Made by a program: the position numbers and the translations under genes. Positions 1 through 64,000 of a stretch of DNA of 64,000 nucleotides are shown in pieces. The notes below the pieces were generated by a model, which saw only the letters and a list, made by a program, of their open reading frames with translations, was not told the origin of the DNA and made no database searches. Location: the NCBI GenBank assembly GCA_031414595.1, contig JANNVX010000098.1:32001-96000 (forward strand), given 5' to 3'. Origin of the DNA: Deinococcales bacterium (lineage in GTDB: Bacteria > Deinococcota > Deinococci > Deinococcales > JAAFIG01). How positions within the stretch are numbered: the stretch's first letter is position 1; every line of letters starts with the position of its first letter.

Positions 1-1334
1 CTAACAACGATTTGTTGAAGACGAGGACGTTGAAGAAGTATTTCTGGGGATTGGATTGGTTGGGGACTGCTTATGGTATCTAAGCCCTGCACCACCCGCA
101 CTGCCTTCTCGAGCATGATGTCCCGCGCACTGGTCTCGAGCGCATCGTAATCCTCGGGTTGTACAAAATTAGGGGTGACTTTAGGGGGCAAAGCAGCACC
201 GTTTAAGTCCAAAGTGCGAACTGTGGTGATCGTCAGACCACTGCCATCGAGTAAAGGAAAAGTCAGTGTGCCAGTGTTGAGGATGCCGTAAGTTGGTTCG
301 CCAATAATTGCGCCACGTTTAGCACTTTGCAGTAAGGCTGGGGTAATTTCGGCACAACTGGCACTTTGTTTATCCACCAGCACCGCTACATTGCCTGTAA
401 AATTAGCCACTTCAGAGACCGAAGCTCGAGCGCCCGTTGAACCAGTCACCACGCCATTGTTATAGACATATTGCTCACGCTTGGTTTTGCCTTCAAAGAT
501 TACGCCAGTTCGTCCCATCAATGCCCCAGACACACTGAGGCAATTGGTGGCAGCCCCACCCGCGTTACTGCGAAGGTCAAGCACCAGACTTTTTGCGCCG
601 TTTTTAATCGCTTGGTTAATCAGTTTGTGGGTCTGGTCAGCCACTTGCGGTGGTACATAATCTGGAATCCGAATCACTGCCACGCTTAAAGGAACACCGA
701 CTGGTTTTTGCAGACTCGGTAAGCGCGGCACAGTTGCCAGTTTACCTATGGCTTTGATTTCGCGGTTTTGCCCAGCCCGCCGCACGGTCATGCTAAATTC
801 ACGACCACTGCGAACTTCGTCGCGTAACGCCAAACTGCTTTGGTCGTCGCCAACAGGTAAGGGCTTACCGTTCAGTGCCACAATCATGTCGCCTCGAGTT
901 AAACCGACGCTTTCGGCTGCCATATTTGGTGCAACATCGGTGATTAAGCGCCCGTTACTTTTTGTGCGGTAAACACTGACAATCCCCAGAACTGGGAAAC
1001 TTCCACCTTGTCCAGTGCGAGCGCGTTGTGATTCGGTAAATTGGGCGGGATTCTCAAAAAAAGTATGCGGGTCTTCGAGTTGGTCAAGCATTTTAGCGAT
1101 AATCGGATGCGCCACACTGCCCGCACACGCCGAACCAAGACTCGAGCAGGCTTTTTGCAAGTCGCTTCTGCCTGCGGCGAGTACATTATTTAACTTCTCG
1201 AGTGAAAAACCATAGTATTGCTCGAGTAAAAGCGAACTGGTCTGCTCAAAAACCTGTTCCGCCAGACTGTTTCCTTTCGGGGCTGGAGCGCAAGCTGATA
1301 ATGCCAGAAGACCAATCAGAGCCATTCTTTTCAT
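1..1334 (-). CDS. S41 family C-terminal processing peptidase with PDZ domain, lipoprotein; 3' end runs off the window
   Basis: Read manually on the minus strand from ATG at 1334: MKRMALIGLLALSAC lipobox, LEDPHT, PDZ-like GLTRGDMIVALNG, VLDLRSNAGG and SASCAE motifs of S41 peptidases; open to position 1. Confidence 0.88.
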   Translation of the reverse strand, partial: MKRMALIGLLALSACAPAPKGNSLAEQVFEQTSSLLLEQYYGFSLEKLNNVLAAGRSDLQKACSSLGSACAGSVAHPIIAKMLDQLEDPHTFFENPAQFTESQRARTGQGGSFPVLGIVSVYRTKSNGRLITDVAPNMAAESVGLTRGDMIVALNGKPLPVGDDQSSLALRDEVRSGREFSMTVRRAGQNREIKAIGKLATVPRLPSLQKPVGVPLSVAVIRIPDYVPPQVADQTHKLINQAIKNGAKSLVLDLRSNAGGAATNCLSVSGALMGRTGVIFEGKTKREQYVYNNGVVTGSTGARASVSEVANFTGNVAVLVDKQSASCAEITPALLQSAKRGAIIGEPTYGILNTGTLTFPLLDGSGLTITTVRTLDLNGAALPPKVTPNFVQPEDYDALETSARDIMLEKAVRVVQGLDTISSPQPIQSPEILLQRPRLQQIVV

Positions 1335-1385
1335 ACTCGGTAGCCTAGCAGATTTTGTAACGCCACTGGTGCTATTGTAGTTGGT

Positions 1386-2105
1386 ATGTACCAAAAAGAC
1401 CTTCGGGCGCTTGACGCACTCGAGTTACTGCCGCGTGTGATTCATGATGCCGATGAAGTCGTTCCAACTTTTAAGGCACTGAATGCCGAGTTAAGTGGAC
1501 CACTTTGGGCAGAAGCCCCAGCCAATTGGCTGGGCAGGGTCACAGCTAGGGCAGAAGATGCCCTTGGCAGCATTTACCTTGTGCCGCCGTTTAAGATGAA
1601 ACGCTTGATGCCCTTAATGCGCCAAATGCAGGAATACGGTGTGATTGCCGCAGGGATTGACTTTGCAATGCTCGAGAATGCCGCCGAGACCCGCCCACGT
1701 AGCGCCGCCGAATTGGGCGAACTGAAAGCCGCCGCCGGCGTGCCTTTTGTGATTGCGGGAATCCTTGACCCACGCGATGCTGAATTGGTAGCCGAAGCGG
1801 GGGCAGATGCGATTATTGGTTGCTCGAGCCTGAGCAGTATTATTGGTGGTCCGAGTCTGCCAAGTTTGGTGGCTGACATCCGCGATGCCATCGGCGACAC
1901 GCTGCTTTTTGCTCGCGGCGGTTTACGCAGTGGTTCGGATGTGTTGCGCTACATTGCGCTTGGTGCGGATGCAGTGGTTGTCCCCGGTAGCCTCAATCCA
2001 CACCGGATTCTCGAGGAGTTTGTGCAAGGAATGCGCTGGAGTGGCTGCTCGAGCCTCGCTGAAATCAATTACGACCTGATTTTTCAACCGATGTTTACCG
2101 ATTGA
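1386..2105 (+). CDS. FMN-dependent alpha-hydroxy-acid dehydrogenase-like protein (short, divergent)
   Basis: LLPRV at the N-terminus, GILDPRDAELVAEAGADAII, GGLRSGSDVLRYIALGADAV FMN-binding TIM-barrel motifs. Confidence 0.7.
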   Translation: MYQKDLRALDALELLPRVIHDADEVVPTFKALNAELSGPLWAEAPANWLGRVTARAEDALGSIYLVPPFKMKRLMPLMRQMQEYGVIAAGIDFAMLENAAETRPRSAAELGELKAAAGVPFVIAGILDPRDAELVAEAGADAIIGCSSLSSIIGGPSLPSLVADIRDAIGDTLLFARGGLRSGSDVLRYIALGADAVVVPGSLNPHRILEEFVQGMRWSGCSSLAEINYDLIFQPMFTD

Positions 2106-2269
2106 GTTGCAGATTTTGACTTTATCGTTTTTTCTGATAACACCGTAATTGCACCTGACTTGTATGTGACGTGAGTTTTCACCCAAGATATTGTATGCTG
2201 CATCCTACAGGGGGTAAACCTTTCTTAGTGCATAAGGGTGAATCTTCCTCATCACAAATGGTATTTTGA

Positions 2270-63038: not shown

Positions 63039-63098
63039 TTTTCTAGGCTAACATCTGTCTGTCAGGCAATGCGTCAGTCAATCAGCTTAGAATAGCGC

Positions 63099-63701
63099 AT
63101 GGCGACCGAACGCGAATTAAAACTGACCGGAGTTTTACCAAAACTCGAGGGCGTTACAAGCATCGCGGGTGTTCCTTTGCGCTTTTTGCGTTTGGAGCAT
63201 CAAATCAATGTCTACTTTGATACCCCAGAACTGACCCTGCGACGTGGTGGCTCGAGCCTTCGTTTGCGGCGTGTAGAAAACGGTGAGCATGTTTTTACCT
63301 GGAAAGGACAAAGCCAGATTTTAGGTGGATGGCATTCTAAACAAGAAATTGAAGTTCCTGCTGGAGAGGCAAAAACCATTCAAGACCTGACCGAACCAAG
63401 CATTCTCGAGAAATTAGGTGATGTAAAACTCGAGCAGCTTGTGCCAATTTGTCGGTTTGATACGGCTCGAGCGATTTATCGGCTCGAGGGCATTGGTGAA
63501 CTTTGTTTAGATAGTGTGCAAATTAAACGCGGTGAGGAAATGATTGAAGCCTTTGAAGAACTCGAGTTAGAAGCCCTTGAAACCGCCGATGAGACCAAGT
63601 TGCAACAAGTGGCACTGACTTTAACGGCAATCGGGCGGCTCGAGCCGAGTGCTTTAAGTAAATCAGCACGGGCTTTACGGGCGCTGGGGATTGAGGCTTA
63701 G
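63099..63701 (+). CDS. CYTH domain protein
   Basis: ERELK, YFDT, LRLR, ELELE, SKSAR. Confidence 0.88.
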   Translation: MATERELKLTGVLPKLEGVTSIAGVPLRFLRLEHQINVYFDTPELTLRRGGSSLRLRRVENGEHVFTWKGQSQILGGWHSKQEIEVPAGEAKTIQDLTEPSILEKLGDVKLEQLVPICRFDTARAIYRLEGIGELCLDSVQIKRGEEMIEAFEELELEALETADETKLQQVALTLTAIGRLEPSALSKSARALRALGIEA

Positions 63702-63709
63702 GGTAAAGC

Positions 63710-64000
63710 CTAATCTGGCTTAAATGCCCATTCGCCAGCGTTTAACAACTCGAGTCTCGAGCCATCGGCTCGAATGCCAACCACCTGCATTTCCTTACTG
63801 CCAATCATCCAATCCACATGCACTTGGCTGTCGTTTGCACCGTGGGCTGCCAGTTCTTCTTTACTCATGGTTGTGCCGCCATTGAGGGTGTAGGCATAAG
63901 CCCTGCCCATAGCGATATGACAAGCCGCATTCTCATCAAAAAGTGTTTCTTGGAACAGCACCCCACTTCTGGCAACCGGCGAGGATTCGGCAACCAAAGC
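63710..64000 (-). CDS. Aminopeptidase, M29 (AmpS/PepS) family, C-terminal part only
   Basis: TLFDENAACHIAMG, NDSQVHVDWMIG. Confidence 0.9.
   Translation of the reverse strand, partial: ALVAESSPVARSGVLFQETLFDENAACHIAMGRAYAYTLNGGTTMSKEELAAHGANDSQVHVDWMIGSKEMQVVGIRADGSRLELLNAGEWAFKPD

Follow-up and report, generated by a model that had tools for sequence, protein, structure and literature searches.

In a 64,000-nucleotide stretch of the genome of a Deinococcales bacterium (positions 32001-96000 of contig C98 of assembly G000, hereafter the window), the palindromic hexamer CTCGAG occurs 352 times, or 5.5 times per kb. We find that CTCGAG is a genuine highly iterated palindrome (HIP) of an uncultured Deinococcales family, and not a mobile element, a by-product of coding or a local signal. 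The hexamer had been singled out in an earlier reading of the window made from its letters alone (the sequence-only reading), which likened it to HIP1, a genome-wide palindrome of cyanobacteria. This likeness is borne out across the assembly, which comprises 4,488,778 bases in 120 contigs at 47.2% G+C and is 94% complete: it contains 23,235 copies of CTCGAG, one per 193 bases, in excess in both coding and intergenic DNA.

Abundance of CTCGAG and anatomy of the site

One hundred dinucleotide-preserving shuffles of the window yielded a mean of 7.79 copies of CTCGAG (standard deviation 2.93, maximum 17), and none of the 100 reached the observed 352. An exact count for positions 1-5000 gives 25 copies, the same number that the sequence-only reading had counted by hand, and the density that it had described as persisting to the end of the window does so, with 8 to 30 copies in each 4-kb bin. 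In the genome as a whole, CTCGAG is the commonest hexamer, threefold above the next; the six hexamers that follow are words that overlap CTCGAG, and AAAAAA has 5,616 copies. The 23,235 copies compare with expectations of 972 from base composition (a 24-fold excess), 534 from a first-order Markov model (44-fold) and 1,281 from a second-order model, and each of the 40 largest contigs carries 4.1-6.1 copies per kb. Under a maximal-order Markov null the observed/expected ratio fell to 1.16, solely since about 90% of the occurrences of the 5-mers CTCGA and TCGAG belong to CTCGAG itself; this null was set aside in favor of the lower orders and of codon shuffles. GAGCTC, whose base composition is the same as that of CTCGAG, has 6 copies in the genome and none in the window.

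The sequence-only reading had also claimed that CTCGAG occurs in all three reading frames and that codon usage is inadequate to explain it. As coding DNA we used 3,866 non-overlapping open reading frames (ORFs) of at least 100 codons, a crude set based on ORFs and made with no gene finder, which covers 88% of the genome. These ORFs contain 20,420 sites (5.15 per kb), with 12,102, 4,005 and 4,313 in frames 0, 1 and 2, and the Leu-Glu, xCT-CGA-Gxx and xxC-TCG-AGx readings are all seen. When codons were shuffled within genes such that protein sequence and codon usage were preserved (10 runs), the three frames held 1,290, 413 and 270 sites, for a total of 1,972 ± 40, indicating an excess of about 10-fold in each frame. 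Permutation of whole codons inside genes gave 929. The synonymous shuffle is a conservative control because CTCGAG itself inflates the usage of CTC, GAG, CGA and TCG. In the 60 ORFs of the window, 303 sites (167, 56 and 80 in frames 0, 1 and 2) compare with 25.0 in the within-gene synonymous-codon shuffle (16.0, 5.2 and 3.8 by frame), and the maximum of 200 such shuffles was 39. Since the excess is kept under a codon-preserving shuffle and is not limited to one frame, the claim that codon usage does not account for it stands. Likewise, sites occur in intergenic DNA as claimed: the window has 49 in 8,422 intergenic bases (5.8 per kb), and the genome has 2,852 at 5.34 per kb, a density equal to that of coding DNA. 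Intergenic segments of at least 20 bases contain 2,834 sites, versus 73.5 from their own dinucleotide model, a 38.6-fold excess.

We measured the strength of the bias from the occupancy of places at which CTCGAG can be written. Leu-Glu places are coded by CTCGAG in 12,102 of 20,173 cases (0.60; frame 0), where 5% would be expected; occupancy is 4,005 of 8,584 (0.47) for [SPTA]-Arg-[VADEG] places, and 4,313 of 11,766 (0.37) for places at which a codon ending in C is followed by Ser and then Ser or Arg. Outside the sites, Leu is coded by CTC in 8.2% of cases and Glu by GAG in 20.7%, so the odds ratio for CTC-GAG at Leu-Glu places is about 87 (log 4.47). The log of the excess is 3.65 in intergenic DNA, and the excesses in the two settings appear to reflect one force of scaled strength about 4, alike in both. 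Leu-Glu is the most over-represented dipeptide in the proteins of G000 (20,173 vs 9,074 expected, 2.22-fold), with Glu-Leu at expectation (8,897). At aligned orthologous positions, Leu-Glu is found 295 times in G000 and 175 times in G013, a weakly enriched genome, versus 124 and 118 times for Glu-Leu. Relatives that differ from G000 at frame-0 sites mostly have Leu-Asp, Ile-Glu, Phe-Glu, Val-Glu, Leu-Ala, Leu-Gln or Leu-Lys, and many of these residue pairs have possible codons that differ from CTCGAG by one letter.

The site is a bare hexamer, of which the first copy in the window (108..113) is an example. In G000, no position within 12 bases of CTCGAG exceeds 0.026 bit. At the first flanking pair, complementary bases occur at a frequency of 0.19 (coding DNA) and 0.22 (intergenic DNA) versus 0.26 expected, with further pairs at expectation, and the palindrome is therefore not extended. 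The longer flanking consensus for which the sequence-only reading had proposed a search was thus not found, every flank being below 0.03 bit, and a longer palindrome is ruled out as well. Within CTCGAG sit 69% of the TCGA tetramers of G000; outside it TCGA is under-represented (10,239 copies vs about 17,400 expected for all TCGA). Spacing between sites is near exponential (mean 191, median 138, standard deviation 189), with a three-base ripple from the frame preference and no phasing beyond this codon periodicity. Density is flat over ORF starts and stops (4.5-7.0 per kb in 40-nucleotide bins), and intergenic sites show no additional hairpin signal. In alignments of orthologs, the share of sites that lies in ungapped blocks equals the share of gene length in such blocks (0.976 vs 0.976, 0.968 vs 0.968 and 0.957 vs 0.961); the sites originate by substitution, not by insertion. 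CTCGAG is not part of an inserted, conserved unit longer than its core, such as defines repetitive extragenic palindromes and miniature inverted-repeat transposable elements. Among its one-letter neighbors, transition variants number 1.06-1.26 times what base composition predicts, and transversion variants 0.16-0.70 times; CTTGAG and CTCAAG, the products of deamination, are not depleted (observed/expected 1.06 and 1.08).

Depletion of CTCGAG is seen in only two kinds of DNA, tRNA genes and low-G+C accessory islands. The 68 tRNA genes (5,310 bases) hold 7 sites, versus 27.5 at genome density. Site-free stretches longer than 2 kb number 11 versus 0.66 expected, have a G+C content of 0.32-0.44 (for example, G000:C46:36667-41608) and are probably accessory DNA that was imported, possibly recently. 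Six of them contain polysaccharide-synthesis genes, a clostripain-family peptidase, a SUKH immunity protein, DUF2326, a NOV_C protein and ORFs that match no family.

Several side observations concern the placement of sites and other repeated words. Two sites 7 nucleotides apart, CTCGAGnCTCGAG, occur in the window at 36724..36736; G000 has 101 such cases, versus 17-54 for each of the spacings 8-14, an excess that is unexplained. All four middle letters occur among them, and the eight flanks displayed are all distinct. A spacing of 6, which would create GAGCTC, is absent from G000. Five tRNA genes in about 3 kb (Ser, Ser, Cys, Thr and Glu; G000:C56:144-2945) all have CTCGAG, which is found in only 7 of the 68 tRNA genes. 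A strong terminator-like hairpin of 17 pairs on the reverse strand (16195..16235) has a site at its tip (16210-16215), in agreement with the claimed presence of CTCGAG inside terminators. Small GC-rich dispersed intergenic repeats at 26140-26345, 36005-36070 and 23205-23285 have 8, 11 and 3 genome matches, respectively, and are also found in other genomes of the genus; none has CTCGAG. Once the overlaps of CTCGAG are passed over, the most over-represented hexamers of G000 are TTGGCA/TGCCAA (4,445 each, 4.1-fold), TGGTTT, GGTTTT and CAAAAA/TTTTTG.

Distribution across the Deinococcales and conservation of sites

By NuoD identity, the nearest named relatives of G000 are metagenome-assembled genomes designated "Deinococcales bacterium" (80-95%), with Deinococcus species at 66-70%; the sequence-only reading had thus been right in its guess of Deinococcota. 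Five named relatives (L001-L005) carry 5.3-6.9 CTCGAG per kb. The sequence-only reading had called for a comparison across relatives, and our survey of 151 genomes of the order reveals a graded enrichment. In the family to which G000 belongs (f1), whose genomes are metagenome bins that are 57-94% complete, all 19 genomes, from five genera, have 4.3-6.8 copies per kb, and GAGCTC has 0-25 copies in 16 of the 19. Four family genomes sampled range in G+C from 44.5% to 53.6%. Dinucleotide nulls were run for each genome on fetched DNA of relatives: within the family, CTCGAG numbers 1,367 versus 28 expected in G003 (49.2% G+C), 997 versus 18 in G006 (44.5%) and 1,225 versus 36 in G011 (53.6%), and Leu-Glu is over-represented 2.31-fold in G003 and 2.37-fold in G011.

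Other groups of the order are less enriched. Genera g13, g22 and g24 (family f5) and several genera of family f2 have 1.5-3.4 CTCGAG per kb, with GAGCTC much rarer. In G116 (g13; 63.4% G+C) there are 347 copies versus 32 expected, with 3.2 per kb in intergenic DNA and Leu-Glu at 1.65-fold, and its off-frame sites number 35 and 29 versus 3.2 and 4.6 in the shuffle. For G147 and G013, both of f2, the counts are 196 versus 35 and 304 versus 108 from the dinucleotide expectation. The 22 genomes of genus g9 have about 1 CTCGAG per kb, equal to GAGCTC. In the Deinococcus-like genus g7 (35 genomes) we found 0.01-0.27 per kb, or 37-942 copies per genome, and in eleven Deinococcus loci (L006-L016; 222 kb) CTCGAG is avoided, with 6 copies versus 80 expected. 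Across these groups the trait ranges from saturation in one family, through weaker forms in some neighbors, to absence from one genus and reversal in a further one.

We also scanned viral contigs (at least 126 stretches; 80 loci read). Among the loci read, the site-richest are mostly 63-72% G+C and are also rich in GAGCTC, and none of the five whole viral records counted has CTCGAG at the density of the family and at its G+C content. Two high-G+C viral records, G154 (36,913 bases) and G155 (4,810 bases), reached via loci L195 and L180, have 100 and 18 copies of CTCGAG, respectively, and GAGCTC once each. This asymmetry is like that of the weakly enriched genera, and the two may be phages of such hosts.

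Within the family, CTCGAG sites are 2.5 to 4 times better conserved than other hexamers. In 130 ortholog pairs with G003 (four-fold identity 0.52), 546 of 766 G000 sites are conserved (0.71), versus 0.28 for any hexamer; the corresponding values are 294 of 541 (0.54) versus 0.19 for G006 (97 pairs, four-fold identity 0.42) and 154 of 486 (0.32) versus 0.08 for G011 (80 pairs, four-fold identity 0.385). In 51 pairs with G013, 10 of 290 sites are conserved (0.03), versus 0.04 for any hexamer. Where both members of a pair have Leu-Glu, both have CTCGAG in 341, 194 and 118 cases for G003, G006 and G011, versus 296, 176 and 113 under independence. Most of this sharing is chance between two saturated genomes, and some of it comes from shared descent or site-specific retention, which are inseparable here.

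The genomes closest to G000 are G005 (93.5% identical), G001 (91.8%) and G004 (87.6%). With G001 as the outgroup, 11 of 201 sites were lost on the G000 and G005 branches (5.5%), against a 16.2% rate of change for any hexamer (19,220 lineage-positions). There were five gains on these branches, one from a one-off neighbor and four from words at least two letters away; these gain and loss counts are small. The sequence-only reading had claimed that the lineage retains CTCGAG, and indeed loss is about 3 times slower than for other hexamers and gains are ongoing. G000 and G005 differ as a mosaic, in that 16% of 126-nucleotide windows are identical and the 90th percentile of divergence is 12.7%. The flanks of gain and loss events are mostly 10-12% diverged, versus a median of 5.6%.

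Palindrome avoidance and candidate enzymes

In G000, 24 of the 64 palindromic hexamers are present at no more than 0.1 of their Markov-4 expectation; counts include 0 for GGGCCC, 2 for TGCGCA, 3 for GGCGCC and the 6 for GAGCTC. Purging on this scale indicates that restriction-modification traffic is heavy. Shorter palindromes are depleted too, with 152 copies of GGCC versus 13,951 expected (two in the window) and 2,432 copies of GATC versus 17,426. Because GGCC is avoided, Trp-Pro is cut 12-fold (70 vs 836 expected); Gly-Pro stands at 1,374 versus 4,360.

G000 has about 25 distinct methyltransferase genes. The profile matches, some of which overlap between families, comprise five C5, nine Eco57I-type (in eight ORFs), nine N6_N4, ten N6_Mtase and one D12-class, and the genes have an ordinary density of CTCGAG except for short fragments. 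Three of them lie in the window and are given as context only. A C5 cytosine DNA methyltransferase is encoded on the forward strand (18843..20183), convergent with an NgoBV-family restriction endonuclease (PF09564, E 8.8e-51) on the reverse strand (20134..20844). An N6_N4 DNA methyltransferase (42542..43456, forward strand) belongs to a cassette that is absent in related strains; among the N6_N4 loci fetched from relatives it has an ortholog in G003 (86%), and it is not family-wide. A second N6_N4 enzyme (45204..46199, forward strand), between nuoF and nuoG, is 60% identical to one in G010.

The region from 38668 to 47572 of the window holds accessory cassettes inside the nuo operon, between nuoF (40097-41455) and nuoG (48034-50406). 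They comprise a 324-amino-acid ORF with an N6_N4 methylase, a PIN protein, the second methylase with a 213-amino-acid ORF, and an aspartyl-protease-like ORF. Further upstream is a Uma2-family nuclease (38677-39249). Contigs of related strains join 41454 or 38668 straight to 43487. A 53-nucleotide junction, repeated on the forward strand, separates the cassettes 3' of the PIN gene, and the sequence-only reading had placed CTCGAG in these repeats. This is so for the copy at 45135..45187 (CTCGAG at 45151-45156) and for the third copy at 47520..47572 (98% identical; CTCGAG at 47536-47541). It is not so for the copy at 46847..46899, which is 68% identical to the reference copy and reads CTCAAG in place of CTCGAG.

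Profile searches for methyltransferases were extended to the other bins of the family, which differ in completeness as given above; specificity is not readable from such matches. Of 12 other family genomes searched at strict thresholds, 6 have PF07669, 10 have PF00145 and 10 have PF01555. G002 (82% complete) has none of these three at the thresholds used, and the profile searches found no C5 enzyme in G010 and no N6_N4 enzyme in G012. The N6_N4 enzymes of different family genomes are mostly non-orthologous. One C5 enzyme of G000 (C22:27856-29055) and its 413-amino-acid neighbor were present, at 75-99.7% identity, in all six loci of genus g1 fetched from six other genomes, and were not seen among those fetched from four genomes outside the genus.

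D12-class enzymes are found in 15 of 19 family genomes, 10 of 10 in g13, 2 of 2 in g6 and 2 of 2 in g21, all enriched groups; elsewhere they are found in 10 of 35 genomes of g7, 6 of 22 of g9, 0 of 9 of g15 and 0 of 2 of g22. We rejected this class as the shared agent, as it falls into at least four unrelated clusters, the widest of which is missing from the G000 assembly by tblastn. This widest cluster spans genera g3 and g5, G001 and two f2 genomes (51-93% identity) and has a 365-397-amino-acid partner in five loci; the partners scanned, in G011 and G001, match no Pfam family. At G000:C90:33092-35067 there is a C5 methylase with a 285-amino-acid ORF, and between the same flanking genes G001 (L331, G001:C245) has a D12-class methylase with a 365-amino-acid ORF of no family. 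This locus looks like a swap of restriction-modification cassettes.

XhoI-type systems, whose recognition word is CTCGAG, are present in the order. The XhoI-family nuclease (PF04555) was found in 6 of 151 genomes (5 of 23 in f4 and 1 of 37 in f2) and in none of the 35 genomes of the CTCGAG-avoiding genus g7. In the five f4 loci it lies beside a β-class methylase (ORFs of 340-482 amino acids), and in G025 beside a 452-amino-acid γ-class methylase. The best matches in G000 to these XhoI-linked methylases are 23-29% identical. Homologs of the β methylase (E no greater than 1e-30) occur in 30 of 151 genomes, including 13 of 23 in f4 and 15 of 22 in g9, and do not track the enrichment.

Explanations and comparison with known systems

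The uniform density, random spacing and absence of context, together with the equal excess at neutral and synonymous places, the high occupancy and the drift toward Leu-Glu, point to one position-independent advantage of the hexamer. The restriction of depletion to structural RNA genes and imported DNA points to the same advantage, and argues against thousands of separately useful sites. These data suggest that the advantage is still acting or has only recently stopped. We put at about even the chance that a fixation bias or drive of scaled strength about 4, acting alike on every site, keeps CTCGAG, as a HIP-like word, close to saturation. In such a process, CTCGAG would arise by point substitution anywhere in the genome, and a uniform per-site advantage over all neighboring words would keep it near saturation; the bias would override synonymous codon preference and push many conservative amino acid replacements toward Leu-Glu. 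The palindrome would be recognized on duplex DNA by a protein from the restriction-modification world, probably a dimer, which would tilt repair, recombination or transformation toward the site-bearing allele. We suspect a protein of this type because CTCGAG is a classic 6-bp type II target, is purged in the sister genus and sits amid 24 purged palindromes. We infer that the bias has its source in a palindrome-recognizing protein, and our first choice for its form is a methylation-linked process as proposed for HIP1, which we consider the most likely. The sequence-only reading had suggested active generation or retention of CTCGAG, with methylation-coupled repair, seeding of recombination or an uptake-like tag as possible causes; retention and gains are seen, and the candidate enzymes searched for were not found.

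Several results weigh against a uniform fixation bias. Sharing of sites goes beyond independence, with frame-0 ratios of 1.05-1.15 (p 5e-18, 5e-5 and 0.02) and ratios of 1.2-2.4 in frames 1 and 2 (most p <0.03; p 0.07 for frame 2 of G011), and selection may therefore act on particular sites. On the most recent branches losses (11) exceed gains (5). Eight of these losses involve at least two letters (for example, TTAGAG) and lie in locally diverged patches; the position of these events in diverged patches implies that recent turnover may run mainly via recombination and not via point mutation. Four-fold divergence is flat with distance to a shared site (0.42-0.50 for G003 and 0.56-0.60 for G006), a weak test since divergence is near saturation. 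Composition-based binning could hide contigs of the family that lack CTCGAG. The machinery sought is also wanting: Vsr (PF03852) had no match in the 94% complete G000, with the control search positive in 3 of 14 genomes; none of the 19 family genomes yielded an XhoI-family nuclease; and homologs of the β XhoI-linked methylase (E no greater than 1e-30) were found in 0 of 19 family genomes, 0 of 10 of g13 and 0 of 2 of g22. Thus, the search for XhoI-type methyltransferases that the sequence-only reading had recommended turned up none in the family. Methyltransferases of PF00145, PF01555, PF07669 and PF02086 form a patchwork, none being common to all genera. Finally, Xu 2018, in the part available, reads the same kind of conservation in HIP1 as selection.

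A methylation-directed ratchet, in which constitutively methylated CTCGAG would direct the repair of heteroduplexes or replication errors such that one-off variants are turned into sites, and in which non-orthologous methyltransferases would serve in different genera, is a specific form of this fixation bias and follows the model of Elhai for HIP1. We regard the ratchet as possible but, on balance, doubtful. The 6-bp palindrome is of the kind that type II enzymes read, and the complement of methyltransferase genes in G000 and the traffic evident from palindrome avoidance are consistent with it. Since XhoI-type systems circulate in the order and the Deinococcus-like genus avoids CTCGAG, a lineage with 23,000 sites would be expected to protect them. 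D12-class methylases are also commoner in the CTCGAG-rich groups. In other organisms, CTCGAG is methylated to N6-methyladenine, N4-methylcytosine or probably 5-methylcytosine by unrelated enzymes (PMC7253447 and PMC6346199, as far as their available text goes), so non-orthologous replacement of a methyltransferase is possible, and each alternate cyanobacterial HIP goes with a cognate methylase in the accessible part of Elhai 2015. Against the ratchet stand the lack of a methyltransferase common to all genera, the unrelated clusters of D12 enzymes with the widest missing from G000, the failure to find Vsr and the undepleted CTTGAG and CTCAAG. Furthermore, between orthologs the inner C does not show C-to-T changes more often than position 6 shows G-to-A changes, and divergence is not reduced near sites.

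It is unlikely that CTCGAG is an uptake or recombination tag, by which competence or recombination machinery would prefer DNA with CTCGAG such that site-bearing alleles are imported and fixed more often, along the lines of the drive model of uptake signal sequences or of the Chi-like or uptake-like role that has now been put forward for HIP1. As uptake genes, only ComEC and DprA were found in G000; both are near-universal, being present in 10 and 11 of 14 control genomes, respectively, and so are little informative. No receptor was found, and a hexamer offers little specificity, and known uptake sequences are 9-12 nucleotides long, non-palindromic and present about once per kb. In favor of a tag, the mosaic divergence of G000 and G005, with its gains and losses in diverged patches, fits frequent homologous exchange; CTCGAG is common to the whole family and hence could mark kin DNA; and the effects on the proteome resemble those of uptake sequences. 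In a 2024 preprint, methylated HIP1 increased transformation by as much as 100-fold, and a 2026 GBE paper proposes HIP1 as an uptake sequence.

Direct selection for a function of sites genome-wide, such as attachment of an abundant nucleoid protein or recognition of self by defense systems, seems to us improbable. Conservation of sites above background and above independence is in keeping with it, as is the absence of sites from foreign-looking low-G+C islands, and Xu 2018 (available in part) argued for selection and a nucleoid role in the case of HIP1. Such a function does not fit well with near-exponential spacing that lacks phasing beyond codon periodicity, with the lack of positional preference around genes or with Leu-Glu sharing that is mostly chance (296/341, 176/194 and 113/118), and a per-site benefit that fixes 23,000 sites singly would be hard to picture. 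Lastly, frame 0 holds 59% of coding sites, CTC and GAG are favored codons in high-G+C relatives and site-rich viral contigs are mostly GC-rich and GAGCTC-rich too, yet there is next to no chance that CTCGAG results from coding, from base composition or from the avoidance of other palindromes, or that it is a repeat element or an artifact of assembly, given the excess that survives the protein- and codon-preserving shuffle in three frames and is as strong in intergenic DNA, the 6 copies of the equal-composition GAGCTC, the sites without common flanks and outside alignment gaps, and the orthologous positions shared by genomes from different records.

Among known systems, uptake signal sequences and DNA uptake sequences (USS/DUS) of Pasteurellaceae and Neisseriaceae are lineage-wide over-represented words that probably spread by drive rather than by local function and that affect protein sequences; they have a known uptake bias and often form inverted pairs in terminators. 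CTCGAG differs from them in being a palindromic hexamer at 5 per kb, with no extended consensus and no intergenic hairpin signal. Dcm/Vsr repair, which raises CCWGG in E. coli, is a methylase-linked bias that enriches its own target, with a small excess and depletion of T-containing neighbors. Here, by contrast, the excess is 24- to 44-fold, the deamination products are not depleted and G000 yielded no Vsr. XhoI/PaeR7I-type systems share the recognition word and are present in the same order, but their nuclease was found in none of the 19 family genomes and their linked methylases have no close relative in G000 or the family.

HIPs have hitherto been treated as a cyanobacterial peculiarity whose cause is debated after thirty years, with a repair ratchet, nucleoid structure and an uptake or recombination signal as the proposals. 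We found no prior description of CTCGAG as an iterated or over-represented palindrome in Deinococcales among the matches listed in searches of the full-text literature, whose coverage excludes most subscription journals and REBASE. The graded series across the order, from saturated through weak and absent to avoided, provides an independent system for finding shared machinery, and, if our reading is correct, the weaker forms in neighboring genera with near-complete genomes could make the HIP question testable outside cyanobacteria. The genome also shows how far non-coding forces can reshape proteins, in the doubling of Leu-Glu and in the 12-fold cut of Trp-Pro through GGCC avoidance. In practice, the composition of family genomes is marked so clearly by CTCGAG that the word can serve in binning and can reveal foreign DNA, and XhoI-type cloning and codon-pair statistics are expected to misbehave with DNA of the family. 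More tentatively, and with a probability that we hold to be short of even, HIP biology may have arisen here a second time, independently and in a stronger form: a sequence-specific drive of scaled strength about 4 would write CTCGAG into every tolerant place, adding about 11,000 Leu-Glu pairs, while the word is purged in the sister Deinococcus-like genus, and its specificity would have flipped from restriction target to self-propagating self mark within one order.

The closest likeness is to the HIPs of cyanobacteria. HIP work in Elhai 2015, the 2026 GBE paper, Xu 2018 and the 2024 preprint deals, in the parts of these sources available, with cyanobacteria and not with Deinococcota, and CTCGAG has no mention in the available parts of the first two. 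Alternate HIPs (for example, GGGATCCC, TCGATCGA and CAGGCCTG) resemble the present case in that certain lineages have another palindrome in place of HIP1; they differ, as far as these partial sources go, in being confined to cyanobacteria, each reported with a methylase specific for its word. The word of HIP1 is GCGATCGC, with the core CGATCG, which has 3 copies in the 4.49 Mb of G000, so CTCGAG is not HIP1 proper. It also differs from HIP1 in phylum, in length (6 versus 8, with the palindrome unextended), in one-off variants that are only mildly biased to the outer positions and in the failure to find a cognate orphan methyltransferase. Like HIP1, it is a short GC-rich palindrome, present lineage-wide in coding and non-coding DNA at tens-fold over expectation. 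Both words, HIP1 according to Elhai 2015 and Xu 2018, are also born by substitution and conserved above background in genomes with many restriction-modification genes and strong avoidance of other palindromes, and the function is still debated. CTCGAG thus matches the HIP class on every feature tested except the cognate methylase. It provides a second HIP-type case with another word in another phylum, at 5,200-6,800 copies per Mb versus 300-2,700 per Mb for HIP1, about twice the range quoted in the available part of Elhai 2015.

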